In this document: positions 61 through 24,794 of the stretch, piece by piece | Layout of the letters: the number at the start of each line of letters is the position of its first letter | How positions within the stretch are numbered: position 1 is the stretch's first letter | Origin: a virus | Taxonomy: Duplodnaviria > Caudoviricetes | Virus record (IMG/VR): IMGVR_UViG_3300027653_000051 | Span: 1 to 25,879 of that record | Strand: one strand, 5' to 3' | Length of the DNA stretch: 25,879 nt | Position numbers and translations under genes: made by a program | Notes under the pieces: model-generated | Database searches by the model: none | Seen by the model: the letters and a program-made list of their open reading frames with translations, nothing else | What the model was told of the DNA's origin: nothing

Positions 61-66
61 GCTACA

Positions 67-891
67 TTAATTAGTAGCTCGCTTGTGGATCATTATATCG
101 GTATAGGACGAATTGTAATTGATAGAATTTGAAGTAGTTGTCATCACTGCACCACTGAACGGATTTCCTGCATAAGTTCGCGTTTCTATCCACTCACACA
201 ACTCAACGATTTGAGACTTATTGGAAGTGAAGTAGAAGTAATTCGAACCGTTCAATACGTCTAAAACGTCCAAATAATCACGAAGCTTCCAATACGAATC
301 ACTATTGTACGTTTTAGTGTCGGTCGATAGATAGGGTGGATCAACTAAAAAAACTACACCCTCAAGCTCTTTAAAGTCGTTAAAAACACACCTATAATCG
401 CCCTGAATTCGCTCAACACCTGATAAGTATCCGTCAGCATTATAGTCTGCTTTTCTCATCACGTTGTAAAAGGTTTGACACTCCAGCTGCTCAAAATTCA
501 TCATGTACTTGCCAGAAAACAATATATTCGCTGAAAGCGTTACATAATCCACCCACGGTTCTGATGCAATTATATCTAACATCTGTTGCCTGATGGATTC
601 CTTGACCTTCTTATCCCTTGGCTCATTTTCAAGCAATGGACGCAATTTTGACAATAATGCATTCGTCTCCGGAATACGTTTTAAACGAGTTTTAAAATCA
701 TCAAAATCATTCCAAACAACCCGCGCGGACGGGTACAATTGCTTGACTGTATGGCTTAATAAGCCAGAGCCACCAAACAAATCCACGAAAACAGCATCTT
801 CCGGGTACCCTTTTAATGCTTCAATAAACTTCTTTAAAAATCGCCGTTTTTGACCCTGAAACGGCAAAGGTGATTGATTATACTTTTTCAT
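67..891 (-). CDS. DNA adenine methyltransferase (D12-class/Dam-like; resembles Hin1523/Nma1821 Mu-prophage methylases)
   Basis: N-terminal PLPFQGQKRRF, SAM-binding VDLFGGSG, WNDFD and catalytic VDPPY motifs; terminal position in the phage. Confidence 0.9.
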   Translation of the reverse strand: MKKYNQSPLPFQGQKRRFLKKFIEALKGYPEDAVFVDLFGGSGLLSHTVKQLYPSARVVWNDFDDFKTRLKRIPETNALLSKLRPLLENEPRDKKVKESIRQQMLDIIASEPWVDYVTLSANILFSGKYMMNFEQLECQTFYNVMRKADYNADGYLSGVERIQGDYRCVFNDFKELEGVVFLVDPPYLSTDTKTYNSDSYWKLRDYLDVLDVLNGSNYFYFTSNKSQIVELCEWIETRTYAGNPFSGAVMTTTSNSINYNSSYTDIMIHKRATN

Positions 892-919: not shown

Positions 920-1138
920 ATGAATACTTTTCTTAAAGTGTTTTCTGAAGATGGAAACACAATCTTACATTATTTAAATGCCGAACATTTTGTTAGCAAT
1001 TTGATGTCACCAGCTGTATTTACCACAGGAGAGTCTTTTCATATTTCAGAAATTACTTACATTGCGACTAATGTGGTTGTTCTTTACAAGAATGGTGAAG
1101 TACATATATGTGTTTATGCTAAAGCTTTAAAAGAGTAG
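920..1138 (+). CDS. Small hypothetical protein (moron-like, opposite to the late operon)
   Basis: 72-aa ORF that almost fills the gap between the methylase and the TS-like gene; own promoter motif; AT-rich codon usage. Confidence 0.6.
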   Translation: MNTFLKVFSEDGNTILHYLNAEHFVSNLMSPAVFTTGESFHISEITYIATNVVVLYKNGEVHICVYAKALKE

Positions 1139-1783
1139 CTAAACATTCAAATTAAACTTCGTTCTATTCCCATTGAGCAACTCTTTGGTCGCTTCTATAT
1201 TATTCTTGTAAATATGCACATTGCCCAAAAACAATGTGATTGAGCGCAATGGCACATCTATTTGTCTACTGATTAAATACAAATGGTAGATGTCCGCAGG
1301 AAGTCCTAAACTTGCATCTGAGCTACGCTGATAAGCAGAGATGACAAGCTTACCTCTATCTATCTGAAATTGAATGAGCGAAAGGCACGGCTGTTGATTG
1401 CTCTCGACATCTGTACGACCGAGAAATAATACATAATTCTTTGAATTGCGCTTCTCTTTGTTGATTTTCTTAATTAAGTCCGGGAGTTGCTCAAAATATG
1501 TCGGGTAGGAATTAACCAGAATAGAACCGCAGTAATCCCACCAATCAATTCCATTTTCTTTATAAGTCTCCACCAATCGTTCACCTTTCTGAAACAGCTC
1601 CAACTCGGTTTTTAGCTTATTCCGAGCCACACCATGCGTTTCAAAGATTTCTAACAAATCAGCTGGCTTCAGCCGCAACACTTCATCTGTCAAATAAACA
1701 ATACTTCCCTTCTTGTTTACCTGAGTTTTTCCTTTGTTTAGGATTTTACCTAAAATCTCGTGATACTTATTCTTCATTTTCAT
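1139..1783 (-). CDS. Divergent thymidylate-synthase-family protein (possible dCMP methyl/hydroxymethyltransferase)
   Basis: Catalytic PC motif (QPCLSLIQF), YQRSSD-LGLP and NVHIY motifs. Start moved from TTG 1846 to ATG 1783 (or 1777), which has an A-rich context. Confidence 0.85.
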   Translation of the reverse strand: MKMKNKYHEILGKILNKGKTQVNKKGSIVYLTDEVLRLKPADLLEIFETHGVARNKLKTELELFQKGERLVETYKENGIDWWDYCGSILVNSYPTYFEQLPDLIKKINKEKRNSKNYVLFLGRTDVESNQQPCLSLIQFQIDRGKLVISAYQRSSDASLGLPADIYHLYLISRQIDVPLRSITLFLGNVHIYKNNIEATKELLNGNRTKFNLNV

Positions 1784-1793
1784 TATATTTGCA
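1784..1793 (+). promoter_or_regulatory. Candidate -7 promoter element for an antisense RNA
   Basis: TATATTTGCA pointing into the structured leader; no clear -33 TTTG found. Confidence 0.45.
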
Positions 1794-1930
1794 CCTCTCA
1801 CGGTATTAAATACAAAACCCACAATCAGAAGACTTATGTCCTCCAACTGTGGGCTTTGTGCTTAATTAAAAATACCGTGAGAAGTTTTTTAATTTGTTGG
1901 AGGACTTTTTAACCGCTCCAACTCGGTTTT
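1794..1930. ncRNA. Structured leader of the TS-like gene and/or antisense small RNA
   Basis: Inverted repeats 1796-1807/1871-1882 (12 bp), 1812-1823/1848-1859, 1838-1847/1896-1905 (10 bp) and 1911-1915/1924-1928; stem mismatches read as G-U pairs on the minus strand. Confidence 0.65.
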
Positions 1931-1977
1931 AATTACTTTTTAAATCGATTTTAAACGCCTTTTAAATGTCTTTTAAA
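1927..1977. repeat. Phased TTTTAA(A) array with 11-bp period
   Basis: Copies start at 1927, 1938, 1949, 1960 and 1971. Confidence 0.8.
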
Positions 1978-2518
1978 GTTTTACCCGTCGGCGGAACATA
2001 CCGAACCGCCAAGCGAGCAAAACAAACAAAATGACAAACAAAATGACAAATGCTATTGTTATATATCCACCAACTTGTAAACCGGTAGATTCTTTCTCAA
2101 CATCTTTCGATTTCTCAAAAGATTTTAATCGTTTTTCTAAATTGGAATAAGCCGTCCAAAGCGAATCAAACTTCGATTGATATTCAAACTCAAACTGCTC
2201 GTGTTCCTGGACTACCTCCTCCGATGCCTTGACTTTTCCTTTGCCTTCTGCTCCAGCTTCCCATCCATGCTCGGTTTTGTTCATATAGAATCGAAAACCG
2301 TCTGAAACATCACCGTCATAATCGATTGACCAGTTTGACAAGAATCTACTGAAGTCAAATGAAGTGATCCCAGAAGCTTCTGTTTCGCTCGATACCTGCG
2401 AACTATCGAACGTAGTCGACACATCCTCGACCTCGCTCTTTCTGCTCTCAACCGATTTCTTCTTTGTCGCACAGCCGACCAATAACATGGCCGTTAATAT
2501 GATTACTTTCCAATCCAT
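1973..2518 (-). CDS. Lipoprotein, probable unimolecular spanin
   Basis: Lipobox LLVG-C at the N-terminus, C-terminal transmembrane helix followed by RRR, directly downstream of the endolysin. Confidence 0.75.
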   Translation of the reverse strand: MDWKVIILTAMLLVGCATKKKSVESRKSEVEDVSTTFDSSQVSSETEASGITSFDFSRFLSNWSIDYDGDVSDGFRFYMNKTEHGWEAGAEGKGKVKASEEVVQEHEQFEFEYQSKFDSLWTAYSNLEKRLKSFEKSKDVEKESTGLQVGGYITIAFVILFVILFVLLAWRFGMFRRRVKL

Positions 2519-3072
2519 TTCTTCGCTTCTTTTTCTAAACTAATGTTATAAGGCTCGCGCTTCAATCGTCGCGCCAACGCCTGATAGCCTGACCCATTAT
2601 ACTTCACGGCGATCATGTGCCAATTACGAGTTCTAACGGCGCTTAAAAGCGTGGAATCGGTAAGGATGAAACGAACCAATGCACACAACTGCTGGTATTC
2701 GCCACGCTTGAAATCATCCCACATAGCGCCAACATTGGCGTAACCAAGGCGCTTCCAGTGAAAACCCATAATTTGTGGCAAACCGATGCTTGTTGCCTGC
2801 ATTGCTGCATCTGGATTGATTGCAAAAGCATCATTGAATGCCAGCCATTCCCGGGATTGCACATCTACTTTGTTTTGTGACCACACACCAGGGCGTGCAC
2901 CAGGAGCTAATTTTCTAAACCAACTCGGCTCAAATTGGATTAAAAGCTTCCCTGTTTTCTTGTCAAATCCATAGCCTGGAGTTTCCACTTTCACGATGGC
3001 CATAAGGACGTCAAAGGGCAAGTTATTGACCTTTGCTAATTCGCGGATTGTATTGATGTTTTCTGTTTTCAT
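2503..3072 (-). CDS. Endolysin, N-acetylmuramidase (DUF3380-like)
   Basis: AIVKVET, IQFEPSWF, ATSIGLPQIMGFHW and YNGSGY motifs; ATG 3072 overlaps the upstream stop as TGATG. Confidence 0.88.
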   Translation of the reverse strand: MKTENINTIRELAKVNNLPFDVLMAIVKVETPGYGFDKKTGKLLIQFEPSWFRKLAPGARPGVWSQNKVDVQSREWLAFNDAFAINPDAAMQATSIGLPQIMGFHWKRLGYANVGAMWDDFKRGEYQQLCALVRFILTDSTLLSAVRTRNWHMIAVKYNGSGYQALARRLKREPYNISLEKEAKKWIGK

Positions 3073-3878
3073 CACCAAATAACAAGTTTTGCACCCTCAG
3101 GTATTGTTAAGTTAATATCAACAGCAAGTCTCAATTGCCATTGAGCACCACCAATTGGTGGTCTTCTTAATTCTGTTGTGCTTAACACGTGTCTGCCGTA
3201 TGTATCTTTTAGACTAAATTTTCTATATGCCTGTCCAGGTCCTATTTCCTCCCATACTATATCCCAATGTGTACCTTGCATGAATGCTTGGCCGTTATCC
3301 CATGCTAATACTGGCAGAGCACCTGGTGTGAGTTCTATTGTTCTAATTACATTAGGTGTAAGGTCTATTTGATACGCTGTGATATCAAAGACCTTCTTCC
3401 ATCCCAAATAATTAACAGCTTCACCTTCTAAGTCTCTAACACCAACAACTTTTGTGGATTTTTCTAAATGCACAACCTCTAAACTTGTAGGAGGAGTCTT
3501 TAAATTTTTAAAGTCTAACTCAAACACTCGGAAAATCCCCCCAGAATCGCCAACGTCATACAGAGAGAACATTGTTCCTTTATTATGCTTTTGTATAAAT
3601 ATTTTATTAGGAACATTAGGGTAACCTCCAGTTTGTCCGTCATTATACCCATCTACTCCAATAGCTACATCGAATATCTTCCTGCCCGCTATATTTTGTG
3701 TAGATGTTAGATCTACATATCCTTCAACTTTTAAAGGAACCGCGTCACGTGTTGGGGTATTAGCAATCGCATACACTTCCATTCCAGTGGCTGTGCGAAT
3801 GAAATAGATTCCATTAACATCCCTATCCTGCGCTGCAGGTAATGCCGTCAATGCGTATGGTGTGAATTTATCTGCCAT
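3072..3878 (-). CDS. Tail-fibre-associated/receptor-binding protein (putative)
   Basis: VDLTSTQNIAGRKIF fibre repeat; N-terminus paralogous to the upstream gene; position in the fibre cluster. Confidence 0.6.
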   Translation of the reverse strand: MADKFTPYALTALPAAQDRDVNGIYFIRTATGMEVYAIANTPTRDAVPLKVEGYVDLTSTQNIAGRKIFDVAIGVDGYNDGQTGGYPNVPNKIFIQKHNKGTMFSLYDVGDSGGIFRVFELDFKNLKTPPTSLEVVHLEKSTKVVGVRDLEGEAVNYLGWKKVFDITAYQIDLTPNVIRTIELTPGALPVLAWDNGQAFMQGTHWDIVWEEIGPGQAYRKFSLKDTYGRHVLSTTELRRPPIGGAQWQLRLAVDINLTIPEGAKLVIW

Positions 3879-3881
3879 AGT

Positions 3882-5051
3882 TTACCATTCTTTTCCGTTA
3901 ACACCTCCCCATTCAACAGCTTCTGCAATCTTATCATCTACATATTTCTTTGAAGTGGCTTGCCTATCAGCAGTAGGCATTGCGGTAGGCAATTGTGGGT
4001 AAGTTGAAAATGTTTTTGTTCCACCTACTGTTTGATTCCCTGATGTTTTTACTACCGTAGAATCATCTGCTGCACCAATGTTTGTTCTTGCATTTGACTT
4101 TTGAGCATTCGTTAATCCTTGAGTGTTGTTGTCATATCTAACATACTTACCATCTGAAGCTTGCTCTTGTTCACTTTCAAAGTCATCTAACTTCTTTTGT
4201 AGTTTTTTAGGAGTTACAAAGTCTAAGTCATCAGTTCCTGCATCCACTTTGGCTTGTGTTGCTATTTTTGCAAAACCAGGTACAGTTTCAGTTGCTTGGT
4301 CAAGGTCAGATTCTAAGATGTAGAACTTATCCCCAACAGCTGCGTGTGTACCTCCACTGTTTGTTTCCTTACAGCGTATTTCTGCACCCACCCGCACTTC
4401 AATTCCTGAAGCACCTCCAATTTTACCAGCTACGGTAACTACATAACCTTCTCCTTTCTCTGTCGGAGGGTAGTTTGGATTAGTTGAACAATCTATGTCG
4501 GTTGGTGTTTTCATGCCATCTGTAACAGCACTTGTAAGGTTGTTGATTTGTGTTTGCAAATTAGAGTCTGCATCATCAACATACTTCTTAGAAGTAGCGT
4601 GTGTGTTTGCTGTAGGTACTAAAGGAATTGGAACGTTAGAACTAAATGTCTTAGTTCCACCTACGGTTTGGTTACCTGTCAATTTAACTACTTCATCATC
4701 CAACGCAAAGTTTGGAATGCCTGTAATTTCAGACCAATCGATATCGACTCCTGTCCTCCTATATCTACTATCTAAATTAATCTCTGTAACTTGTGTTGCA
4801 GTACCTGACCCTGTTGCTAATATCTTTAATTTGCCATCTGTAAAGTCTAAATCGATTTTAACTTCTCCAATTAGATTATTTACAGAATCAACAGAATCTA
4901 CTGTTCCTAAGCTTACCCAGTCAGAGTTGTCTGCCTTTCTAATGTATATCTTAAACGAAGTATCTGCATCGCCCTTGATGAAGTAAAGACCATTAACGTC
5001 TATACCTGTCGTAGGTAATGCTTTCAATCCATAAGGTGTAAATTTTGCCAT
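3882..5051 (-). CDS. Tail fibre protein with internal repeats
   Basis: ATETVPGFAKIATQAKVDAGTDD..VTPKKL fibre repeat, two GNQTVGGTKTF...ATSKKYVDD repeats and LTNAQKSNARTNIGA. Confidence 0.75.
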   Translation of the reverse strand: MAKFTPYGLKALPTTGIDVNGLYFIKGDADTSFKIYIRKADNSDWVSLGTVDSVDSVNNLIGEVKIDLDFTDGKLKILATGSGTATQVTEINLDSRYRRTGVDIDWSEITGIPNFALDDEVVKLTGNQTVGGTKTFSSNVPIPLVPTANTHATSKKYVDDADSNLQTQINNLTSAVTDGMKTPTDIDCSTNPNYPPTEKGEGYVVTVAGKIGGASGIEVRVGAEIRCKETNSGGTHAAVGDKFYILESDLDQATETVPGFAKIATQAKVDAGTDDLDFVTPKKLQKKLDDFESEQEQASDGKYVRYDNNTQGLTNAQKSNARTNIGAADDSTVVKTSGNQTVGGTKTFSTYPQLPTAMPTADRQATSKKYVDDKIAEAVEWGGVNGKEW

Positions 5052-5070
5052 TTTTTATATATTTATTTTA

Positions 5071-5367
5071 TTACCATTCTTTTCCGTTTTCTCCGCCCCA
5101 AAAGGTTGAAGATGACTCTTCTTCAATTGGATAAATCAATCCAGGTTCTATCAACGTTCCTGAACTCGCTACAGATGTAAGTAGCTTTAAGTTATACACA
5201 AATGCTGTTTTATTAAGCACTTTATAAACACCAGCGTTTTCTATATATACTTTTGAATTCACTCGAACCCAATCTATCATTGGGTCCAACACAACATCCA
5301 CCACACCATTTAAGTCTGGCTGGATAAATGAAGAACCTGTATTCGACTGAATCCTTGTTAACCCCAT
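5071..5367 (-). CDS. Small hypothetical protein of the fibre cassette
   Basis: 98-aa ORF overlapping the upstream stop; ends WGGENGKEW like the next gene. Confidence 0.7.
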   Translation of the reverse strand: MGLTRIQSNTGSSFIQPDLNGVVDVVLDPMIDWVRVNSKVYIENAGVYKVLNKTAFVYNLKLLTSVASSGTLIEPGLIYPIEEESSSTFWGGENGKEW

Positions 5368-6323
5368 TTCTCAAATTCAAATATTAATTTGTCTTTTGAA
5401 CTAATTACACGATTAATCACAGCTCCATTTCCACTTTGACCAGCATCAACTTCAATGTAATCTGCATTATTTCCTTTCGATAAAAGGATTCCATTTAGGT
5501 ACACTTTAAGTGTTCCTGTGCGATATGAATCTTCAATAGTGAATGTTTTATTTATACCATCACGAAGCCCACTAATTTCAGAATCATATCTAATTTGTAA
5601 GGATGCAGGCATAGCTGAAACTCCTGTGTCTCGATCGCCTATAAACCAGTTTCCGTTTTCTCCGATTGTTGGGCTTAAACCATCCTTTCCGTCTTCCCCA
5701 TCTTTTCCATCCTCACCTGGTACGCCTACATTTCCTGCTGGATTAACCCAAGGCTCTTTGGTTGTTCCTGTGTAAATCCAAAAACTTATTATTTCTCCTT
5801 GCGGTGTTCCGTCTATAGTTTGCAAATAATAATCACCAATTTCAGCGTCTATAGTTGCTAAATTTGGATCATCAGAAGCGCCATAATGCAACTTAACAGC
5901 TGAATTATAGATTCCTAAATTAAGCCACCCGATAGCATCAACCCCTGTAAATATGTAAAGTGCTATATCTACAGTTTCAGTATCATCTTTTAAAACGTAA
6001 AATTGACCTATTTCTCCAGCGATTTCAGCTTGATTTGGATCTTCGATTCCAGTTAAAATTTCTTTCGAGCTATCTATATTACCTAATAAATCACGCCATT
6101 TTTGAGCGTCGTCTTCTGAAATATTCGACGCATCTCTCATCGCACGTGAATTCAAATCACTTGCAATATCATTGAAGTAATTTTCCAAACCGTCGATTGA
6201 AGAGCTTGGTATCTTTTCCTCTTTATGCCAAAATGAATCCATCCAGTTCCAGAATTGCTCTTGCACTGGCTTTAGTCCGTTTCTGAACCAATTTTTTAAC
6301 TGTGATTTACTTACTATTGCCAT
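5358..6323 (-). CDS. Tail fibre/adapter protein with short collagen-like segment
   Basis: N-terminal LKNWF..GLKP.QEQFW.WMDSFWHK module that I recognise from Bacteroidota phage fibre genes; GXY run followed by IGENGNWFIG..DTGV. Confidence 0.65.
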   Translation of the reverse strand: MAIVSKSQLKNWFRNGLKPVQEQFWNWMDSFWHKEEKIPSSSIDGLENYFNDIASDLNSRAMRDASNISEDDAQKWRDLLGNIDSSKEILTGIEDPNQAEIAGEIGQFYVLKDDTETVDIALYIFTGVDAIGWLNLGIYNSAVKLHYGASDDPNLATIDAEIGDYYLQTIDGTPQGEIISFWIYTGTTKEPWVNPAGNVGVPGEDGKDGEDGKDGLSPTIGENGNWFIGDRDTGVSAMPASLQIRYDSEISGLRDGINKTFTIEDSYRTGTLKVYLNGILLSKGNNADYIEVDAGQSGNGAVINRVISSKDKLIFEFEKWG

Positions 6324-6325
6324 TT

Positions 6326-7228
6326 TTATAGACCTTTAAATTGAATAAATGCCAGCGTGTAAAAAGGCGGTCGGTTCTCGTGTGCTTGACCTCCTCCAGA
6401 TGTTTTTACAATATGGCTGTGTTGCCCTCCAGATTGTGTCATTCTGTTTCTATACAGAATTCTATTGTTGTCCGAATCAGTTCTTTCGCTACCTATATAG
6501 TTTCCAGCAAGTATTTCCAATACAGTTCCAGGTACACGTGTGCCATCTATCGCGCTATTGTTCTCTATGTAATAAGAGTCTGCGTAAGCATGCGCGTGCC
6601 CACCTGCCAATTCAGTTGTATGTCCGTGCGAAGGCATTTGCGCTTCTGTTAGTGTAACATCTTTTGCGCCGCCAACCTTTCCGACTGCATTGTAATCCGC
6701 TTCGGAAGAATTGTAGCCGACCACGAATCTTGACCTTAAATCAGGCGTGCCGTTAGTACCGTCGCAAAGCGCCCAACCTGCTGGTATTTCATTTATTGCT
6801 CCAGCCCACATGATTATTGCACCCACGGGCGTGAGTTTTGAATTCATAGAATCTATAGTAGAAGTTAATTCTATTAAAGACTTTACTCGTTTAAAACTCG
6901 ACCATGGAATGCCTGGATTTCCAAACACCATTTTTCTGGTTTCGTAAACTGCTTTACTCGCACCGTCTTCGAATTCTCGCTCCTCCGTCACACTTACCAC
7001 CCTAACCAATGAAGCTAACGCTCCACCTTCAAACGGCAGTACTTCGTTATTATAAACCACGAATCCAGGGCTGACGTTTCCGCCACTCTCGATACAACCG
7101 GATAGAATGACATTCTCGCCAGCCATTGCACCGAGTTGGTTGAATATATTCCAGGATTCCTGCATGAAGGTCAGCGTATCTGACTCCAGTGGAAATCCTC
7201 CAGTTTGTTGTACGTGTATCTTATTCAT
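6326..7228 (-). CDS. Tail fibre protein with tail-collar domain
   Basis: PVGAIIMWAG..IPAGWALCDGTNGTPDLRSRFVVG, MPSHGH and AHENRPPFYTLAFI motifs. Confidence 0.88.
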   Translation of the reverse strand: MNKIHVQQTGGFPLESDTLTFMQESWNIFNQLGAMAGENVILSGCIESGGNVSPGFVVYNNEVLPFEGGALASLVRVVSVTEEREFEDGASKAVYETRKMVFGNPGIPWSSFKRVKSLIELTSTIDSMNSKLTPVGAIIMWAGAINEIPAGWALCDGTNGTPDLRSRFVVGYNSSEADYNAVGKVGGAKDVTLTEAQMPSHGHTTELAGGHAHAYADSYYIENNSAIDGTRVPGTVLEILAGNYIGSERTDSDNNRILYRNRMTQSGGQHSHIVKTSGGGQAHENRPPFYTLAFIQFKGL

Positions 7229-7230
7229 AG

Positions 7231-7740
7231 CTATAGCTCGTTATATTCAAAAAATGCGTTATTAATTATTATATATCTCGTTCCAAAAAGCTTGTAAAAG
7301 TCAACCAAGGCTTCTATATCATGCCTATCTGCACCTGCACCGTTCATGTTCACCTTAAAGTCAATGTTCGATTCGTAAGCCGATGAATCGTATAAGTCAA
7401 GCCTACCCAAATGTTTTGGTTTGTTTTCAGCGAAGGTGTAGATGTAGTTGTATTCTGCGATAAAATCTTCTTCGATTCGAATTCGTCGCTCGGACGGATC
7501 AAATTCATCGTTCAAAGCCTTTTCTAAATAGCAAATTTGATAGTTGTGATTGACGCGATAAATGTTTCGTTTTCGATTTTGGACAAATGAATAATGCAAA
7601 CCAACGAGTGGCCGAATCAAGGATTGCAAGAAGCCAATGGACGCCTTGCGCCTCCATAAAATTGGAAGCATCAAAATCATCAACTTATTAAAGTCAACGT
7701 GATACCATTGCGCGTTTTGACTTGCTAATTCCTCCGCCAT
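7231..7740 (-). CDS. Baseplate wedge subunit (Mu gp48/P2 gpI positional equivalent)
   Basis: Lies between the baseplate J-like gene and the fibre gene; QICYLEKALND.FD motif. Confidence 0.6.
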   Translation of the reverse strand: MAEELASQNAQWYHVDFNKLMILMLPILWRRKASIGFLQSLIRPLVGLHYSFVQNRKRNIYRVNHNYQICYLEKALNDEFDPSERRIRIEEDFIAEYNYIYTFAENKPKHLGRLDLYDSSAYESNIDFKVNMNGAGADRHDIEALVDFYKLFGTRYIIINNAFFEYNEL

Positions 7741-8606
7741 TATACTAAGTAATTTATTCCATTATAATCTTCGATCTTGAAGTAACCACTCTCTGGCACT
7801 TTTCGAACATCTACTACCTGCCAATCTCCATAATTTCCCAATCCTGGATCAATCCAAGAAGTCAAAACACTATCGATTTGAACCAAGTTCACACCTTCTG
7901 TTTGCTCTAATTTGTTAGATAAATCTTGCAAACGCAATTCACCATTGAACGGCAATTCCTTCATGAATTCCTTTAGTGCATCCTCAACGGGTTTAGTTCC
8001 GTCAACGCGATGCACTCCATTCGAAGTTAGAATGAGCGGATCTCGATAAATTCGAATGTTTAGCTGCAATAAGTCTGGTAAATAGTTGATCAAAGTATAA
8101 GGCACACCCGCCGCTTTGATTTGCATCAGCCATTCGCTCACCGCTTCGATTTCGTCCGGTGTCAATGGCTGAAGTTCTTCGTTGATTTCGGTCGCAACCT
8201 TACAAATCACTCTCTTTTCGTTCGAGCTTTCCGTAACTGCTGCGTATTTGATTATTTTCGATTGAAGGATTTCGTCCTCCGTCTTTCCTGCATTGTTCCA
8301 CTTATCCGTTCCAGGTATCAAATTGAATCCATATTGAAAATTCAATAATTGCTCCCTGACCCAGATTCCATTGTGAAGCTTTTTACTCGCGATCAGTTCA
8401 TCCAGCTCGCGTTTGTGAACGCCAAATATCTGTTCCAATATATAATGTGAGAAAGCGATGATTTCGAACAATACATTCTCGTAACTTACGAGTGAAAATT
8501 GAGATTCAAAGCTTTGATTTGGATCAAATCCATATCTCTGTTGCATCTCTTCATTCGCCATGAATGCATCGACTATTTCCCTTTTTATTTCTGCCCTTGT
8601 TCTCAT
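7740..8606 (-). CDS. Baseplate J-like wedge protein
   Basis: Gene order, size and IIKYAAV / IKAAGV / LPFNGEL motifs. Confidence 0.65.
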   Translation of the reverse strand: MRTRAEIKREIVDAFMANEEMQQRYGFDPNQSFESQFSLVSYENVLFEIIAFSHYILEQIFGVHKRELDELIASKKLHNGIWVREQLLNFQYGFNLIPGTDKWNNAGKTEDEILQSKIIKYAAVTESSNEKRVICKVATEINEELQPLTPDEIEAVSEWLMQIKAAGVPYTLINYLPDLLQLNIRIYRDPLILTSNGVHRVDGTKPVEDALKEFMKELPFNGELRLQDLSNKLEQTEGVNLVQIDSVLTSWIDPGLGNYGDWQVVDVRKVPESGYFKIEDYNGINYLV

Positions 8607-8896
8607 GATACAATGAATTCGTTTTTAAGTTCCCAATACGAGATTCCTTCCAATTTCGGTTTACTCGCTTCGATTCCCGTCCAAGCCGTTGCAGGTACTT
8701 TGTTTTTCGGAGTGAAGAAATTCACCACCTTTTGACTGCGAATATTCGTTGGCTGAACATCGTCACCAACTTTCAAATCAGCTGTTATACTTCTTGAATT
8801 CAACACTGCCATGTCGATGGCTGTGTCGATGCTCCCTGTCGTTTGCAGGATCATGTCTAAAAAACTCTGTCCTTGCCTAACTTTCATAACTCGCAA
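8603..8896 (-). CDS. LysM-like/tail X-like baseplate protein
   Basis: VRQGQSFLD..LQTTGS...A.LN...T.DL..G resembles a LysM pattern. Confidence 0.65.
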   Translation of the reverse strand: MRVMKVRQGQSFLDMILQTTGSIDTAIDMAVLNSRSITADLKVGDDVQPTNIRSQKVVNFFTPKNKVPATAWTGIEASKPKLEGISYWELKNEFIVS

Positions 8897-9224
8897 CTAT
8901 ATCTATGTTTTCTGCGTCGTATAATTCCAATCTCTTAATCACCAAGCCGTCTTGAGTGAACACCTCTCGCACTCTGTGCCTTGCTTCTAACAAGTTTTCA
9001 TTCAGCAATTCGGCTTTCAATCCCACGCCAAGCGTTGGTTCTGACTTCAATTCACCTGGATACATTGCCAACAGCGTTGCTTGGTTCTGATAAAGTGTGT
9101 GATCTATCACAACACCCGAATCTATCATTCCATCATCGTTGTATTGCGGTTCAATCTTCAAATCCCACAATTCCGCCGCATCGGCTGAATCAACGAGCTG
9201 TATGCCTGTATCTTTTCTTTTCAT
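8877..9224 (-). CDS. Baseplate gp25/gpW (Mu gp46)-like protein
   Basis: PGELKSEPTLGVG motif, 115 aa, follows the spike gene. Confidence 0.65.
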   Translation of the reverse strand: MKRKDTGIQLVDSADAAELWDLKIEPQYNDDGMIDSGVVIDHTLYQNQATLLAMYPGELKSEPTLGVGLKAELLNENLLEARHRVREVFTQDGLVIKRLELYDAENIDIVASYES

Positions 9225-9430
9225 GTCAAATTTCCTCCAAATGTTCCTGTAACTGGCCCCGCAGAAGTCGTCAAACCCGATACGTAATTGATCTGTGCTT
9301 CTTTGATTTCGTCTATCAATGCAACTGCAAGTCTATCGGAAAATTCATCAATCGAATCCACTTCACGCTCCATCATGTCGTTCATTATTTCGACTATATT
9401 TCCTTTTAATCTATTTTTATCTAAAGCCAT
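9221..9430 (-). CDS. Small hypothetical baseplate-region protein
   Basis: Tightly coupled 69-aa ORF ending GPVTGTFGG. Confidence 0.7.
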   Translation of the reverse strand: MALDKNRLKGNIVEIMNDMMEREVDSIDEFSDRLAVALIDEIKEAQINYVSGLTTSAGPVTGTFGGNLT

Positions 9431-9934
9431 TTAAATCTGTTTTAAAATCGTTTTAAAAGCCGTTTCAAAATTCTCAATTGCCAAAATCGAGTCCGGTAAT
9501 GGTGTACCACTTGGACCAACTGGCGTGTGCACCTTCAAATTCTTCAAAATCGATTGAAGCTGATCAAATAGTTCATAAATTCCAGTACTCGAATTCTTCG
9601 CTCCGATTTTCGAAGATTTCAAATCGATTTCCATTTCGAAATCTCCGTTTTTAGCAATTACTTTATCGATCTGATCGCATTTGATCACTGCTAAATTGTC
9701 AATCGATCCATCCGTTGAGATCATCATTACATTTGTTCCAATCGTTGGAATTAAAAGCAAGGTTTGAGCATCGTTCGCTGTCGCCTTCAATTTGACATCG
9801 CTCAATTCGATATCGTCAACCTTCACCGTGCAAGTGTCGGTTTGAGTAGATACCACGGTTCCGGACAAAATCACTCTTTCATCCATCCTGACTGTTTCCA
9901 GCAATCGCCTTTTCAATTCCGCCACTCTATCCAT
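9431..9934 (-). CDS. Baseplate spike (gpV/Mu gp45-like)
   Basis: OB-fold-like GTVVS..TCTV...P.IGT.V N-terminus and VHTPVGPSGTP tip motif; follows the hub gene. Confidence 0.65.
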   Translation of the reverse strand: MDRVAELKRRLLETVRMDERVILSGTVVSTQTDTCTVKVDDIELSDVKLKATANDAQTLLLIPTIGTNVMMISTDGSIDNLAVIKCDQIDKVIAKNGDFEMEIDLKSSKIGAKNSSTGIYELFDQLQSILKNLKVHTPVGPSGTPLPDSILAIENFETAFKTILKQI

Positions 9935-10905
9935 TACGCACTGAGTTTAATTCCTAATTGCACATTTCTAACGATTCCACCCTCGCTCAGCGTTGTTTTC
10001 ACTGAATCGACATAATATCTACCGTCTTTATATTCATAATCTGAATCGTATATTCCTGCGGTGAATGAAGGTTCTACGTATGGAATCAACCAAGCATCAA
10101 AACTGCCTTCATAGCCGTCCGTCATTCGATTCTTATATTCGGTTTCAGCGATTACTTTAATCGTTTCGGGCGTCATTCGTCCAACCCTTTTTGTGATTTT
10201 CTCACCGCCCGGTTGACCTGCGGTGTAACTCGTTATTGTGCCGTCCAATGCGACGTTTTCGATGACCACTTCAACACGTTTGTCTTGAGCAGTTTTGTAC
10301 TCTAAACCGAAATTCTCGATGTTGATTTGTGGCGAATAATCCACATCACCGCCTTTGCGTGTATATGCTGGATGAATGTGGAGCGTGTTGTTTTCGAAAT
10401 AAATATCCGCTCCCGTTTCTTCTTGAAGTTTTTTCAAAACATCAAACGCAGTTGCGTGATGAATCGTGAACTTCTCGTAATCAATTGTATAATCGCTGAT
10501 AAGATTGATTGTTGGATCAACATTTTGAATCAAATAATTAGCGATTTGAGCGATTGAAGCTGGTTTCATTTGGATATTCGGAACTGAAACCCGGAACAAA
10601 AACAATGAATCCTCGCATTCGATTTTGATGGACCCGTCGTTGGTGATTATTTCTTTGATGTAGCCTTTGAATTCCGTTCTGAATTGATGACCACGATACC
10701 CGAGTTTGATTTCAATCTCATCTCCACGGCCAATGATTTGACCTAAATTCAAAACTTGATTGAAGTTGGCTTCAGGCAATACGATAGTAGCTGTATTGGC
10801 TAAGTTTTTCACTGACTTGTCAATGATACACTCAGACAACAAACCGAGATTCCATGTTTCATCTTCGGTCCTTACAATCACCTCCCAAATGACTTCAAAA
10901 TTCAT
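9934..10905 (-). CDS. Baseplate hub (Mu gp44/P2 gpD-like)
   Basis: IKLGY..EFKGYI, IECED, GYEGSF..W..P and G.YYV.SV motifs. Confidence 0.8.
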   Translation of the reverse strand: MNFEVIWEVIVRTEDETWNLGLLSECIIDKSVKNLANTATIVLPEANFNQVLNLGQIIGRGDEIEIKLGYRGHQFRTEFKGYIKEIITNDGSIKIECEDSLFLFRVSVPNIQMKPASIAQIANYLIQNVDPTINLISDYTIDYEKFTIHHATAFDVLKKLQEETGADIYFENNTLHIHPAYTRKGGDVDYSPQINIENFGLEYKTAQDKRVEVVIENVALDGTITSYTAGQPGGEKITKRVGRMTPETIKVIAETEYKNRMTDGYEGSFDAWLIPYVEPSFTAGIYDSDYEYKDGRYYVDSVKTTLSEGGIVRNVQLGIKLSA

Positions 10906-10906
10906 C

Positions 10907-11596
10907 TTATCTAAATTCTGTTGCGTTTACATCCGTGTTATTTCTCTTATAAATCAAATCCCAATCGAAATCCGAAATTGCTTTTATTTCGTAGGCTTGC
11001 ACATTTTCGCCTTTTGTAAATGGGAAACTCATTTCTTCAATCACTATATAATTGATACCCAAAAGCTGAAGCGGTTCACATTTTACTTGCAAGCGCTCAG
11101 CGGTCAACATATAATCGCGTAGTCTCTCCATGTCCTCGCGTGGATAAGTCTCCACGTACGAGCCTTTCAACCTTTCGCCGAATAAAGCTCCCGTTATGGT
11201 GATGTCGATGTCGTCCGTACCCATTCGCTCTTTTATCGATCCGATCAGTTTACTTCCCGATTTCGATACATATCTTTTAGCAATGATGTTTCGAATGCCG
11301 ATGTTGATCATCGGTTCCCACGGTAGCAAGTAAAATTGCTCTTCAGTTTCTCGTTTGAAACTGAATGGAAAAAACTGTTCTTCTTCGCTCAATTTGCGAT
11401 CATTCTTCCAAGCTTCAACGGCTTCGAATCCGTCAACCTCGTTTATATGCACCTCGTTTTGAAGTGGCAAAAATGGTATTGGAGGCAATACGTGCTTGTT
11501 CAATTCGTTTTGAACTGCTGCGAATCGCGGTAAAGACTTTACCACCTTACTGCCTACCAAACTGGCTAACAATGCATTTTCGTCTGTTAATCTCAT
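10907..11596 (-). CDS. Tail-tube initiator-like protein (DUF6046-like)
   Basis: Between tape measure and hub; EP.I.I..RN.I.KR, GSIKE and I.AISD motifs. Confidence 0.6.
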   Translation of the reverse strand: MRLTDENALLASLVGSKVVKSLPRFAAVQNELNKHVLPPIPFLPLQNEVHINEVDGFEAVEAWKNDRKLSEEEQFFPFSFKRETEEQFYLLPWEPMINIGIRNIIAKRYVSKSGSKLIGSIKERMGTDDIDITITGALFGERLKGSYVETYPREDMERLRDYMLTAERLQVKCEPLQLLGINYIVIEEMSFPFTKGENVQAYEIKAISDFDWDLIYKRNNTDVNATEFR

Positions 11597-13368
11597 CCTC
11601 CTGCTGTTGTTGCTGAACCTATTACACGAAGCATAGCATCTAACACCTGATCTTCCATTTCGGAAGTCGTTTCTTTAAAAGTCTTGCCATGAATCGTAAG
11701 ATGGCCAATCAAATCGTTAAGGTTTATCGTTATATAATTATGTCGAGTTCCTCCAGTTGCGATGGCTGAATTGGTTTTCTTTGCATCTTTCGAATTTTTA
11801 CCCAATTCTGGAAATGCCATATTCGCCGCTGCTCCAGGAATACCACCCGGTGGTACGATTCCGCCCAAATCGAACGATTCCCATGAGAGAGCTCCACCTG
11901 CTTTCTTCAAAGATTCCAAACCTTCTTTGGTCAATTTACCAGCCTTCACGTAGCCGTCAATGATGCTTTTTTGACGATCTTCAATCGATCTATTGAGGTC
12001 AGCAATCATTTGATTGTTCGCGCTTTTATCGCCGATTCCAATGAAGTTTTTGAACTTAACCCAGGCGATTCGAAGCTTGTCAATGTTTATCATAAAGCCT
12101 TGAATTAAAGTGTTAAATTGAGCTTTTCCAGCCTGAACAAATGCTGCCAAAATGGACTTAGCACCGTCCATGACGTGATTCCAGGCATCGCCCCAACCTT
12201 TTACCGAAGTAGCCAACCAAAGAATTACACCAATCAACGCGACTATCGCCGCAATGATCCAAGTGCCAGGAAACGCCCAAACTGCCAAGTTTGCCACCCA
12301 TTGAGCGGCCGCTAATGCTAACAATGCAACGGAAACCAATCCGAGAATTGCGACGAAAGGTTTTAAATATGGCCCTGCCTTATCACCCAACCAGCTGATG
12401 ACACCCATCAACTTTGTGGCAATTGGTAGAAACACATTTCCGATTTCAATAAACATTTGCTTGAATTGCCCACGCAGTTGCTCCAATTGCCCGTAGGGCG
12501 TATTTGCAACTTTATCGAGCATATTATGAAACTTCCCACCTTCGCCCGTTGCTTGAGTCATCGCCCACTTTACGTGATCGATAGTCAATTGACCTTTAGC
12601 CATTTTCTCGCGAAGCGATTCCATACTTTCACCCGTTGCCTCGCTAATCACAACCAATGGGTTAAATCCAGCGTTAATCATCTGATTCAAATCTTGCCCC
12701 ATCAGTTTGCCGAGTGAGTTGATTTGCGAAAATGCGAGTGCTAATGATCCAAGTTTCTGAGCATCACCTTGAGCGATGTCTCCGAGTTGCTCCATAATTG
12801 GGAGCAATTCCGAATCCTTGACACCATAACCGAGCATCATCGCTCCGATCTCATAGAGTTCATCGCCAAAGACTGTATCTGTCGCAAACTTGGTCAATCC
12901 ATCAAATAAAGCTGCTCCTATCTCTTCGGAACCAGTAAGAACCTGCATTCGCATTTTCTCCTTTCCAGCTTCCATTGCCTGGGTTGTAGCCGACCAGAAA
13001 CCTCCTATCGCTGCGGTAGAGAGAACCAATGGGTTTCGCATCAAATGCGCTCCAGGTAGCGACCCCGCTAAATCGGATCGCCAGCCTTGAATCGTCGCTC
13101 CGATACGCGAACCGGTGATGCCTCGTTCTAAACGATCGATTTGACGTTCTAATCGTTTAGCTTCATTGTAATAAAATCGGAAGGCATTTCTGTCTGTAGT
13201 TTTTTGCATTCCTGCTTGAGCCATGCTCAAACGATTCTGGAGCTGTTCTATCGATGACGACAGCTTACGCGAACGACCAACAGTTCTATCAAAGGCAGCG
13301 TTTATTTTATTCGTTGCCCCAGTGAACTTGTCTCTTAGCGATATTATGAACTCCAGTTTTTCGTGCAT
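11593..13368 (-). CDS. Tail tape measure protein
   Basis: LGDIAQGD..KL.SLALAFSQI...GKLMGQDLNQMINAGFNPL tape-measure domain and a hydrophobic helical middle. Confidence 0.93.
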   Translation of the reverse strand: MHEKLEFIISLRDKFTGATNKINAAFDRTVGRSRKLSSSIEQLQNRLSMAQAGMQKTTDRNAFRFYYNEAKRLERQIDRLERGITGSRIGATIQGWRSDLAGSLPGAHLMRNPLVLSTAAIGGFWSATTQAMEAGKEKMRMQVLTGSEEIGAALFDGLTKFATDTVFGDELYEIGAMMLGYGVKDSELLPIMEQLGDIAQGDAQKLGSLALAFSQINSLGKLMGQDLNQMINAGFNPLVVISEATGESMESLREKMAKGQLTIDHVKWAMTQATGEGGKFHNMLDKVANTPYGQLEQLRGQFKQMFIEIGNVFLPIATKLMGVISWLGDKAGPYLKPFVAILGLVSVALLALAAAQWVANLAVWAFPGTWIIAAIVALIGVILWLATSVKGWGDAWNHVMDGAKSILAAFVQAGKAQFNTLIQGFMINIDKLRIAWVKFKNFIGIGDKSANNQMIADLNRSIEDRQKSIIDGYVKAGKLTKEGLESLKKAGGALSWESFDLGGIVPPGGIPGAAANMAFPELGKNSKDAKKTNSAIATGGTRHNYITINLNDLIGHLTIHGKTFKETTSEMEDQVLDAMLRVIGSATTAGG

Positions 13369-13370
13369 TG

Positions 13371-13546
13371 TTACTTTTTATAGCCTTCAGCTTCTTTTTT
13401 CCTTATAAATTCGAGCTCGCGAACACGCGCTGCCCATTCATTGTCATCCAAGGTGTCGGGATCTAAGCCCATATAATAGATAAGGGATGCGTTCATTATC
13501 CGTAGCCAGTCCCTATCCTCATTGACTTTCGCATCCTTTACAGCTT
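13371..13546 (-). CDS. -1 frame extension of the tail assembly chaperone (gpGT-like)
   Basis: Open -1 frame KAVKDAKVNEDRDWLRIMNASLIYYMGLDPDTLDDNEWAARVRELEFIRKKEAEGYKK* ending 2 nt before the tape measure ATG; G GTA AAG site at 13550-13544. Confidence 0.75.
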
Positions 13547-13828
13547 TACCAGCTCCGCTTCTTTGATTTCGATCAATTCAGCTATTTTTGCCGAAGCTGA
13601 CAGGAACAAACTGTCGTCTGTTTTGATTTCTTCGTCACCTACTACCCAACAGGCATCGAGCATTAATTCGTTGAATTTCATTGGATCTTTAGTCGCTACT
13701 GAAGTTGCGTAGCTCAATGCTTTTCTTGAAGGTCTTTTTAGAATGGCTGTCTTGCCATCGATAGAAATTTGAAAGATTTCTCCGTGTTCTTTCTTAAATT
13801 TTGCGATTTGTTCTTTTGTAAATTTCAT
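13538..13828 (-). CDS. Tail assembly chaperone
   Basis: 96 aa between tube and tape measure; ends ELVKL over the slippery site. Confidence 0.8.
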   Translation of the reverse strand: MKFTKEQIAKFKKEHGEIFQISIDGKTAILKRPSRKALSYATSVATKDPMKFNELMLDACWVVGDEEIKTDDSLFLSASAKIAELIEIKEAELVKL

Positions 13829-13840
13829 TTTGTTTTGTTT

Positions 13841-13864
13841 AAAAAAGGGCGAAGCTAATCGCCC
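13841..13864 (-). terminator. Intrinsic terminator/attenuator after the tail tube gene
   Basis: Minus strand GGGCGA-TTAGCT-TCGCCC followed by TTTTTT. Confidence 0.7.
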
Positions 13865-13882
13865 AGTTGATAATGTTAAAGT

Positions 13883-14293
13883 TTAAATTTGGTTCTTAAT
13901 GTCAATGGCCAGGAACGGCAATGAGATCTCCATGAACTTGTCATTTTGATCGATTTCTTTAGGTTCAGATGAAAATCTAATACCTTCGATTCGATCGGTA
14001 GTCATGGCATCGCCATTGGCAGGGTTACCATAGGAAACCAAGGCGTCGAGCGATAAGCCCAAAATGCTGCCGTTTCCTGCGCGAACAAGTGCTTCGTACT
14101 CCGATTGCAACAATCGAATTTCACCGGTTACTGTTTCGTTACCAGATTGGATGCTATGTGTTTTGCGACCTTTAGCATGCAATGCTTCTCGTTCGATTTC
14201 CTTTGTATATGTGATTCCGCGAATTCCGGTGATGTCTCGACCACCCAAAATCAGTGTTAAATCCGCCCATTCGTATTCTCTTCCGTTAATCAT
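13883..14293 (-). CDS. Tail tube protein
   Basis: 136 aa directly after the sheath; INGREYEWAD..I.GI.Y pattern. Confidence 0.8.
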   Translation of the reverse strand: MINGREYEWADLTLILGGRDITGIRGITYTKEIEREALHAKGRKTHSIQSGNETVTGEIRLLQSEYEALVRAGNGSILGLSLDALVSYGNPANGDAMTTDRIEGIRFSSEPKEIDQNDKFMEISLPFLAIDIKNQI

Positions 14294-14303
14294 TTGTATC
14301 GTT

Positions 14304-15509
14304 TTAATTCGTTAAATCAAATCCAAGCAACACCTCAATCCAACGGTTGTAACCGAACGGACGCACTGAAACATTCACTTGCACTTTCGAAGTGCTAACA
14401 ATGTTTTGATTTGGATCAACAAAACATTTCACACCTACGTCCTTAGGATCCATTTGGTCCGAACTCAAATCTTCTGGCATAGCCGTCGAAATTCTTCGAA
14501 CCACTGCCGATTCCATCGTTTTGGCATAGATCGCCTGGATCGTTCCGTCAACATTCGCAGGTACTTCATCCAATAGGAAATCCAACAATGCGTCGTAGCT
14601 TAATCTAAAAGCTTCATTGATGATTCTTCTATGCGTTAAATAGTGATAGTCATCAGACACCTGTGTCGCTGTGTTCGCATCCATAAAATAGTAACCCGAA
14701 CGACCTGCGTGCGTAGTAAAACAGATATAGCCTTTATCGTACAATGCTTCATTGTCGTAATTTTCAACAGGAGTGTCCACAACGAACATTTCAGTCGGAA
14801 CTAAAGCGCCATTGCGAACTTTACCAGGATTCACACGCGGTGAATAAGCCGCCAATCTACCAGCCAACACCCCAACCGCAGCGCCTTGGCTTGCAGTAAC
14901 TCCCGAACGGCTTTCTGTGTCTCCGATTAGAACAGCAACACTGTTCCAAGAATTCGTTAAAAGGCTTGGCAATTCAACTTTATCGCCTTGGAAGGCGTAA
15001 CCCTCCAATACGGTAAAGAATGGCGCATATTTGACAGCTGTGTAACTCTCAAATAAAGCTTGAGCCGCTGCAGCTGATACCTCGATGTCCGGATCAATTT
15101 CCGCTCCGTCCAAATCGACCGGTGTCGCAGGATCGTAAACGGTAAACAATCCTCTCAATCGACCACCTGCCGAATTGAGCAATTCCTCCGCTGGTGTTAC
15201 ACCATTGTTTTCGGTGAAAAATTCCGATACCTTGGCAGTTTTCGGCATTCCATAAATCCAAACCTCCTGGCCTTCTCCAGCTTCAGCGAAGAATTCAGAC
15301 AAAGCCTTGTACAGCCTGTAGTTATCCATCGAAGCATTGATTCCAAGATCCGCAACGTCTTTCATCGACTTCAACTGATATGCTTTGTTCAACGCAAAAG
15401 TGTCAGAGATTGCCACTGCCGAAGCGATGAATCCAAAGACCCCCGTTTGCAACGGAGTAACGGCGCCAATGACGCCGTTGTTAAATTGAATATTAATTGC
15501 TGGCTTCAT
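14304..15509 (-). CDS. Tail sheath protein (DUF2586-like)
   Basis: L..KGYI......G.SGYYF, DY.Y....R.I and V.PFGY.R.I motifs; start moved to MKPAINI at 15509. Confidence 0.85.
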   Translation of the reverse strand: MKPAINIQFNNGVIGAVTPLQTGVFGFIASAVAISDTFALNKAYQLKSMKDVADLGINASMDNYRLYKALSEFFAEAGEGQEVWIYGMPKTAKVSEFFTENNGVTPAEELLNSAGGRLRGLFTVYDPATPVDLDGAEIDPDIEVSAAAAQALFESYTAVKYAPFFTVLEGYAFQGDKVELPSLLTNSWNSVAVLIGDTESRSGVTASQGAAVGVLAGRLAAYSPRVNPGKVRNGALVPTEMFVVDTPVENYDNEALYDKGYICFTTHAGRSGYYFMDANTATQVSDDYHYLTHRRIINEAFRLSYDALLDFLLDEVPANVDGTIQAIYAKTMESAVVRRISTAMPEDLSSDQMDPKDVGVKCFVDPNQNIVSTSKVQVNVSVRPFGYNRWIEVLLGFDLTN

Positions 15510-15969
15510 CGTCCTCTGTATTTTCAGTTTCTTCTTCAACATCAACTTCATCAGCTTGATCAGCTTCTTCATCTTCCAAATCAAATTCTAAATCAGAATC
15601 TTCTTCATCTTCCACATCTATATCTTTCAATTCAGCTTCCAAAATTCTCGCTTGCAAGGTTTCAAGCTTAATCGATTTTGGCGGTTTTTTGCCATAGAGC
15701 TCTGTGTATTTTTCCACCAATTCAGCATATTCAGCATCTTCAGAAGCTTCAGAAGCTTCTGGTTTATTAGCTTTTGGTTGAACTGGCTTCAATTCTTTCA
15801 CCTTTTCCTCGCCTTTATCCGACACCTCCGATGGTCTCACCACCTTATCGACTTTTTTATTCTTCAACGTTTTTGCGTGCATCTTCGCATCGCTTTCGTT
15901 AAAGAATGCCTGTCCGTCCGATGTTTTATAATAGTGATCGAGGTTTGGGCGTATTTTAAATATTTTCAT
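15493..15969 (-). CDS. Hypothetical protein with HeH-like motif and acidic tail
   Basis: Y.TSDGQAF N-terminus, YTELYGKKP....LETL..RI helix-extension-helix-like motif, D/E-rich C-terminus. Confidence 0.75.
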   Translation of the reverse strand: MKIFKIRPNLDHYYKTSDGQAFFNESDAKMHAKTLKNKKVDKVVRPSEVSDKGEEKVKELKPVQPKANKPEASEASEDAEYAELVEKYTELYGKKPPKSIKLETLQARILEAELKDIDVEDEEDSDLEFDLEDEEADQADEVDVEEETENTEDDEASN

Positions 15970-16301
15970 TTCGATTTCTTTAATTCGTTATACTTTTTCT
16001 CAAGTTCAGAAACTTTGGTTTTGTAGTTTTTCAACTCAATATGCAAAGCCTTGTTTTCCTTCTCTAAGACTTTTATCTGCAATTCAAATCGCGATAAAGT
16101 CTGTTTCATAACATCTATATCATCAGCGTGGCGCTTTCTCATGTCCTCTATGATTTCGCGGTAATAACCCAGCGCTTTGTCAAGATTATCGATTTCGTTG
16201 GTCTGAGCCTCCGCGACATTCTTGCGCTTCGTCTGCGCCCAAGTAATGTAACTACTTAGGGCGCCCGACGATAACGCTGTGATTATTAACTCCGACCACA
16301 T
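15966..16301 (-). CDS. Membrane-anchored coiled-coil protein, possible holin
   Basis: Single N-terminal hydrophobic segment followed by a coiled coil; no other holin candidate in the late operon. Confidence 0.5.
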   Translation of the reverse strand: MWSELIITALSSGALSSYITWAQTKRKNVAEAQTNEIDNLDKALGYYREIIEDMRKRHADDIDVMKQTLSRFELQIKVLEKENKALHIELKNYKTKVSELEKKYNELKKSK

Positions 16302-17447: not shown

Positions 17448-17462
17448 TTTTATAGATTTAGG

Positions 17463-18413: not shown

Positions 18414-18555
18414 TTACACGCTTTTGAAACAAAATTGAAAACGAAATCAGTCTTAATAAAATAGTTGCAAAGCTTCTGAACACATGTGCACGGATACTTT
18501 ACAAAAGTTTAAGTATCATTTTATTACCATCGAAATTTGAAGCAAAGATTTATGT
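18414..18555. promoter_or_regulatory. Divergent late promoter region
   Basis: 142-bp gap between divergent structural operons; GATACTT-N11-AAGTATC inverted repeat at 18493-18517. Confidence 0.6.
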
Positions 18556-20516: not shown

Positions 20517-20527
20517 AACTTAAAAAT

Positions 20528-22190: not shown

Positions 22191-22221
22191 GGGCTAACAG
22201 AAATCGGCTAACTGTTAGCCC
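22178..22221 (+). promoter_or_regulatory. -1 programmed ribosomal frameshift signal
   Basis: T TTT TTC heptamer (22178-22184), 6-nt spacer, perfect 10-bp stem GGGCTAACAG/CTGTTAGCCC (22191-22221). Confidence 0.75.
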
Positions 22222-22240
22222 GCAGACATATTTCAAAGGA

Positions 22241-24250: not shown

Positions 24251-24263
24251 GGGGCAAATATAA

Positions 24264-24659: not shown

Positions 24660-24703
24660 ATCTTTGTTTTTTTTAGTAACTGTACTAAGTTATTAATTAA
24701 TTT

Positions 24704-24736
24704 GAAAAAGAAAAGCCTGAATGTCCAGGCTTTTCT
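24704..24736 (-). terminator. Intrinsic terminator (possibly bidirectional)
   Basis: AGAAAAGCCTG (24709-24719) / CAGGCTTTTCT (24726-24736) with a T-rich tail on the minus strand. Confidence 0.7.
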
Positions 24737-24794
24737 GATTAAAGCTATTTCAATTCGTAGTTTATGAATCGGCTGAATCTGAATAGCAAAGATC

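Follow-up and report, generated by a model that had tools for sequence, protein, structure and literature searches.

A thymidylate synthase (TS) homolog that carries Asp in place of Asn177 (E. coli ThyA numbering) raises the question of which cytosine compound it acts on and what its product does for a phage. Such a gene lies near one end of the window, by which we mean the whole 25,879-nucleotide stretch of the IMG/VR record IMGVR_UViG_3300027653_000051 that was analysed (Table 1). A preliminary description, made from the sequence alone, had proposed a C5-cytosine methyl- or hydroxymethyltransferase rather than a supplier of dTMP, possibly with an unusual substrate.

Table 1. Features of the cassette and its surroundings, in window coordinates
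Feature	Position	Strand	Remarks
D12-class N6-adenine DNA methyltransferase (MTase), FGGSG and DPPY motifs	67..891	-	PADLOC PDLC03268, E 1e-51
72-aa ORF between both enzymes, opposite strand	920..1138	+	no Pfam, PHROGs, NCBIfam or PADLOC match
Cytosine-type TS paralog, short, 214 aa	1139..1783	-	Cys133, Asp156, Asp164, Gln130, Leu134, S-K-N 114-116, His190, Tyr192
Candidate antisense promoter, TATATTTG	1784..1791	+	points away from gene
Structured leader of cassette	1784..1935	-	hairpin about 1795-1883; complementary boxes 1838-1847, 1896-1905, 1916-1922
Lysis, tail, head, Mu-type portal, gp36 and F genes of Mu-like phage	1973..25579		context; virus record 51% complete

A cytosine-type paralog of thymidylate synthase

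The 214-residue product was matched to PF00303 in a Pfam scan (E 9e-22). Its AlphaFold model (pLDDT 80) superimposed on TS, MilA and T4 dCMP hydroxymethylase (Z 15–17.6, rmsd 2.8–3.4 Å, 192–200 residues aligned); a flavin dCMP monooxygenase was also among these fold matches, and the next fold scored Z 4.4. Together with HMMER alignment to solved TS structures, these results bear out the TS homology that had been proposed. In the HMMER alignments Asp164 corresponds to Asn177, PCL to PCH and NKKG to DRTG at the R21 loop, the same placements as those made earlier by eye. A codon check located Asp164 (GAC) at 1292–1294, confirming the Asn177 to Asp change, and the catalytic Cys133 (TGC) at 1385–1387. 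Further codons are those of Arg153 (1325–1327), Asp156 (1316–1318), His190 (1214–1216) and Tyr192 (1208–1210). The TS fold, the catalytic Cys and the equivalents of R166, S167, D169 and H207/Y209 are thus all present, as is typical of the TS superfamily.

Conservation was assessed in the 250 unique members of a set of 279 sequences, which were top matches and are therefore biased to the near family. Every one has E58, W80, C146, S167, D169, H207, Asp at 177, Leu at 147, Gln at 143, Lys25, Arg112 and the S-K-N motif; R166 is present in 249 and Y209 in 248. Conservation of the Cys and the Asp had been set beforehand as a test, and both held throughout. A profile search reached full-length relatives down to 27–49% identity. 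All 17 distant relatives that were aligned carry Asp177; 13 of them have the short C-terminus and S-[KR]-N (Gln143 in 12 of these 13), and the other four have Leu143 and longer tails. Purifying selection was strong in five of five pairs (pN 0.11–0.20, with synonymous sites saturated at pS 0.78–0.93), which argues against decay.

The family has at least 8000 matches, since every candidate scored was a match, and the best 120 are 71–100% identical to the window protein; the named ones among these 120 come from Bacteroidota. About 620 IMG/VR stretches carry the family. Among 400 other genomes sampled from the phylum, none had a match at E<=1e-40, so the family is patchy in species representatives. 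Four longer family proteins were found, two of them fused with MTase; as each came from one short contig, we read them as chance or assembly products and rejected them as real architecture. A distant S-R-N member (the P0220 cluster) is repeatedly found on contigs about 10 kb long, which may represent a small phage or plasmid. Neither a published activity test nor nucleoside data for the family were found in the open-access literature searched, and its motifs are absent from the four files of the MetaGPA supplement. Iyer et al. 2013 (NAR) reportedly surveyed such gene neighbourhoods and may already have predicted this family.

Databases name these proteins thymidylate synthase, and ThyA is indeed the best sequence and fold match, although MilA and T4 tie with it in Z score, within about 2.6. 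The fold, the catalytic Cys, E58, W80, R166, S167, D169, H207 and Y209 are shared with ThyA of E. coli and of a Bacteroidota host. However, N177D, H147L and the loss of the C-terminal segment are all fixed, and the differences extend to L143Q, W83C, SRR to SKN and a length about 50 residues shorter. The best score against the NCBIfam TS equivalogs was 60 bits, far below every cut-off (108–576). Full ThyA is encoded separately in five of five lysogen genomes tested. With selection also speaking against decay, it is very unlikely that the protein is an ordinary or degenerate thymidylate synthase.

Positions 177 and 147 are the top two separating cytosine from uracil TS enzymes according to PMC8670742, and N177D with position 147 is likewise given as marking cytosine enzymes in PMC13326640. 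Judged by its residues, the active site is of the cytosine type at both, with Asp at 177 and Leu at 147, so that the marker proposed earlier is joined by the loss of His147. The proposal of a cytosine transferase that does not supply dTMP gains from this signature, from purifying selection, from the redundancy with host ThyA and from the DNA-modification context described below; its argument for an unusual substrate fared less well (next section).

Several residues bear on the reaction. The 5-hydroxy-dCMP synthases of the RB69 gp48 type have D169N (PMC13326640, in part); Asp156, the equivalent of D169, is present in 250/250, which excludes this class. The Asp or Glu that T4-type enzymes have three residues before the Cys is replaced by Gln130 in all 250 sequences, in a loop with pLDDT of about 58 that makes the register at position 143 less sure. 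T4 gp42 has Asp here, and its D145N change abolishes hydroxymethylation (excerpt of PMC6400193). Xanthomonas phage Xp12 (MT664984, QNN97214), whose enzyme is a tested 5mdCMP synthase (10.1101/2024.12.05.627091), has Asn. Gln143 therefore leans to methylation. Asp177, Asp169 and the lack of an acid at 143, the set of traits seen in Xp12, are combined in the window protein as well, which also shares the TS fold family, the loss of His147, an amide at 143 and the YQR/LRSSD segment. However, it is 19% identical to the Xp12 enzyme, which retains R21, R126–R127 and a full TS C-terminus in place of S-K-N and a short one.

Other traits point the opposite way. Cys at the W83 site and a C-terminus about 45 residues short would place the pocket closer to the open, hydroxymethylating pocket of T4 gp42, with which the protein shares Asp177, Lys at R21, a small residue at W83, the short C-terminus and the fold (Z 15.0, rmsd 3.3 Å, 192 aligned); unlike gp42, it has Gln for the water-activating Asp145 and has lost R127. 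The Ser-x-Tyr near Y94 of T4 may have its counterpart in an invariant NSYPTY, in which Y93 or Y96 may equal Y94. Weighing these residues, we consider a methyl product somewhat the more probable, and a hydroxymethyl product would be the less probable but serious alternative.

Phosphate pocket, helper enzymes and substrate

The preliminary description held most phosphate-binding arginines to be missing. Literally, three of the four are absent, yet this overstates the change. Pairwise alignments equate S114 with R126 and K115 with R127. When 16 intermediate homologs were included, S114 aligned with S125, K115 with R126 and N116 with R127, and we take this second register, with its series SRR, SRN, SKN, as the probable one. 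The R126 site is then Lys here and Arg in five of 13 clade members, the R21 site is K24 (Lys in T4 gp42 too), R166 and Ser167 are kept, and a new Lys stands at Thr22. On these alignments the pocket is conservatively remodelled rather than missing, with R127 as the apparent only true loss. The pocket alone is thus no argument for an unusual substrate, and this point proved weaker than first stated. In TS, the two arginines that can be dispensed with are R21 and R127.

MilA, a CMP hydroxymethylase, is similar in Asp177, in Lys at the R126 site and in fold (Z 15.5, rmsd 2.8 Å, 195 aligned); it acts in antibiotic biosynthesis, not in a phage. Ribose-preferring MilA pairs this Lys with Ala at S167 (PMC5175136, in part), whereas here Lys115 is accompanied by an invariant Ser154. 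The same text reports that H207/Y209 bind the 3'-OH and that S167 favours deoxyribose. Retention of all three points to a free deoxynucleotide as the substrate.

The most probable explanation, which we hold tentatively, is that the enzyme methylates a free deoxycytidine nucleotide at C5, depends on host enzymes and yields partial 5mC in phage DNA. Methylene-tetrahydrofolate would donate one carbon to C5 of the nucleotide, dCMP by default, with Cys133 presumably serving covalent catalysis, Asp164 reading cytosine and His190/Tyr192 holding the free 3'-OH. The product would likely be a 5-methylcytosine nucleotide. Host Cmk, Ndk and DHFR may supply the remaining steps, and host kinases and polymerase could then put 5mC into part of the progeny DNA, where it may protect against restriction. 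In lytic growth the leader would gate expression of the gene together with that of the adenine methylase.

Helper enzymes bear directly on this scheme. As the preliminary description had noted, no nucleotide kinase or dCTPase family was recognised among the 36 ORFs of the window. DNMK, dCMP deaminase and dUTPase_2 were found in 0 of 47 related phage records, which are partly incomplete, and in 0 of the 14 that are at least 90% complete. PRA-PH and DHFR were absent from the 26 most complete records. Kinase, deaminase and pyrophosphatase families were likewise absent from 27 hankyphage ORFs and from 93 ORFs in mostly non-structural regions of four prophages, in which many ORFs lack any family. 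In contrast, Xp12 encodes PRA-PH, deaminase and DHFR beside its synthase gene, carries a polymerase of its own and has every C replaced (10.1101/2024.12.05.627091, in part), and T4 encodes a kinase, a dCTPase, a polymerase and glucosyltransferases. Because the kinase of Xp12 itself was not recognised among the six neighbours scanned, finding no kinase by this approach is not proof of none.

Expressed in the absence of their kinase, the RB69 and DLP3 synthases did leave modified base in the DNA of E. coli, but only in traces (PMC13326640, in part). Bacterial dCMP pools are small as well, and modification by a route confined to dCMP may therefore be too sparse. The missing helper genes are thus the main support for a shifted substrate, a stronger argument than the phosphate pocket. 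It is possible, though we think it rather unlikely, that a TS-fold enzyme bypasses the monophosphate pool here and methylates dCTP/dCDP or DNA cytosine directly with folate, which would be a first.

The nucleotide version, in which dCDP or dCTP is the substrate, so that the phage could do without a kinase or dCTPase and the host polymerase would take up the product directly, is by itself unlikely. It would fit the absent helpers, the kept 3'-OH ligands and a phosphate site rearranged clade-wide, with Asn at R127 in 13 of 17 aligned Asp-type homologs, Lys at T22 in 11 of the 13 with Asn127, and Arg112 invariant in the near family. However, R126(K), R166 and S167 still form a monophosphate-like site, and Arg112 is not kept in distant members. 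We know of no TS-fold enzyme that acts on di- or triphosphates.

The phage cytosine-modifying TS homologs known so far come from lytic phages that bring helper enzymes and, in many cases, a polymerase of their own. The present family is abundant, includes the common gut hankyphage and appears to lack helpers in phages replicated by the host machinery. Two explanations offer themselves: host enzymes pass the modified nucleotide through, or the paralog has a new substrate. In both cases the widespread annotation as 'thymidylate synthase' would need correcting, and a single gene could serve as a tool to introduce 5mC or 5hmC; if dCTP/dCDP or DNA is the substrate, temperate phages such as hankyphage would have a one-gene cytosine-marking counterpart to Mom.

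A slot shared with DNA methylases

The gene lies at the end of the late genes, which is the mom position in hankyphage. Its neighbour (Table 1) is a D12-class MTase with FxGxG and DPPY motifs in the terminal slot of a Mu-like phage, traits of Hia5/Hin1523; we take it to be Hia5/Hin1523-like, and the nearest proxy compared was a protein encoded close to the right end of the SuMu genome, a Haemophilus phage (39% identity). Identity to the hankyphage MTase is 50%. The closest relative (L165) likewise has a small opposite-strand ORF, at 3445–3690 (-), between the enzymes.

We compared 160 loci, 80 from IMG/VR and 80 from GTDB. A homolog of the window MTase adjoins the TS paralog in 113 of them (68 upstream, 45 downstream). 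The other 47, of which 21 have less than 1.5 kb of flank on one side, include a different D12 MTase in six, an N6_N4 MTase in one, and many loci without any. One genome holds two sister prophages with the same leader and upstream genes, one with the TS paralog and the other with the MTase, and phage fF4 has the leader with a lone MTase and no TS annotated within the stretch examined. These cases show that the slot is exchangeable between the TS paralog and DNA methylases. Sharing and swapping of the slot make it likely that the TS paralog marks phage DNA with modified cytosine.

The com-mom genes of Mu and the Hia5-type methylases of FluMu occupy the same terminal position (PMC3299994, in part). 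As with Mu com-mom and Hia5/Hin1523/Nma1821, we see a terminal modification operon whose enzymes are interchangeable and which has a control element of its own. The word 'thymidylate' does not occur and no TS-fold enzyme is mentioned in PMC3299994; no Com homolog was seen here, where an RNA leader, plus an 80-aa ORF in Bacteroidales, takes its place.

Could the enzyme itself act on DNA, as a folate-dependent post-replicative modifier of cytosine standing in for Mom and the methylases? The slot and leader common to DNA-acting enzymes, the lack of nucleotide helpers, a net charge of +8 (family median +5) and the shortened C-terminus would suit this role. However, His190/Tyr192 and Arg153/Ser154, ligands of a free 3'-OH and a terminal phosphate, are nearly invariant, no DNA-binding domain or conserved fusion was found, and the MTase is absent or different in the 47 loci above. 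We regard this as improbable.

It is also quite unlikely that the cytosine-nucleotide product leaves phage DNA unmarked and instead feeds dTMP via a host deaminase, or disturbs the pool against host defences or rival phages. Xp12-type phages turn 5mdC to dT by deamination (10.1101/2024.12.05.627091, in part), no phage kinase was found, and a tightly structured leader would fit a harmful product. Set against this are the absence of a phage deaminase from the 47 records, the hosts' own ThyA and the pairing and swapping with DNA methylases.

Hankyphage (Bacteroides phage p00, BK010646) carries an ortholog, DAC76694, with 71% identity in the same slot, and its genome ends with the 80-aa ORF, the TS paralog and the MTase. 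DAC76694 is annotated only as thymidylate synthase, and the main text of the PLoS Biol paper is silent on it. The hankyphage 'ThyA' rises on derepression (log2FC 2.0, 1.5, 1.8 and 4.4; from supplement 9 of PMC12135933), and at 1–6 h its induction is below that of structural genes (PMC12135933, in part). The rise could be a gene dosage effect.

Of three prophages that were read completely, two encode a MuB-like ATPase. The other one, with RecT and DnaB, lacks Mu genes, which shows that the family extends beyond Mu-like phages. A reverse transcriptase often lies just upstream of the cassette (56/160 loci, e.g. L137 2850–4154), with a DGR in hankyphage. In metatranscriptome run X16 one low-depth contig skips most of the MTase gene (window 133–891), and contigs in X16 and X17 diverge from the window sequence at the TS gene's 3' end; slot content seems to vary in natural populations. 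A DUF4406 ORF, nucleoside 2-deoxyribosyltransferase-like by PHROGs, lies at 25223–25579 (-) and also at L163 18257–18559. MilA works with a glycosidase of the nucleoside 2-deoxyribosyltransferase superfamily. DUF4406 was not seen in hankyphage or in the L166–L168 prophage, so it has no fixed link to the TS paralog.

The RNA leader of the cassette

The sense strand of 1781–1930 folds with -65 kcal/mol (z -11), and no Rfam match was found in 1–3000. A covariance model was trained on the window plus 37 loci, which match by construction; it hit 73/80 and 67/80 loci at E<=0.05, 140/160 in all and always on the sense strand. The leader precedes whichever cassette gene comes first, be it the TS paralog, the MTase or the 80-aa ORF. 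Other copies are at L162 40550–40693, at L174 2828–2953 and in L180. Five whole genomes hold six copies, five at the TS paralog and one at the methylase-only sister prophage.

The 80-aa ORF (phrog_17790; L162 40709–40948) stands between leader and enzymes in 83/160 loci, from Bacteroidales phages; the covariance model places the leader upstream of it too, so that both co-occur. By eye it looks helix-turn-helix, and it is followed by TGCA..TGCA and a sense TAnnTTTG motif. Its product is a putative, possible activator.

Two 10-nt boxes covary, with 389/460 positions Watson-Crick in 46 leaders, a count in which related sequences figure repeatedly. Read on the opposite strand, 46 of the mismatches would become G-U pairs; on the sense strand, two would. 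RNAalifold on a MAFFT alignment recovered only a 6-bp box pairing and not the long hairpin; the arms align poorly, so that hairpin covariation was seen by eye and in single folds only. At the hairpin base TATATTTG presumably matches the Bacteroidota -7 promoter consensus, and a promoter-like motif facing away from the gene is present there in 54 of 54 leaders picked by regular expression. An antisense RNA switch is thus a likely, though predicted, feature of the leader.

Two metatranscriptome runs from one study each gave one short contig over the leader (1824–1959 and 1809–1953) and little on the genes, which is not expression evidence. A 15-mer around CTCCAACTCGGTTT occurs twice, in the gene at 1599–1613 and in the leader at 1916–1930, which may allow the coding region to pair with the leader boxes too.
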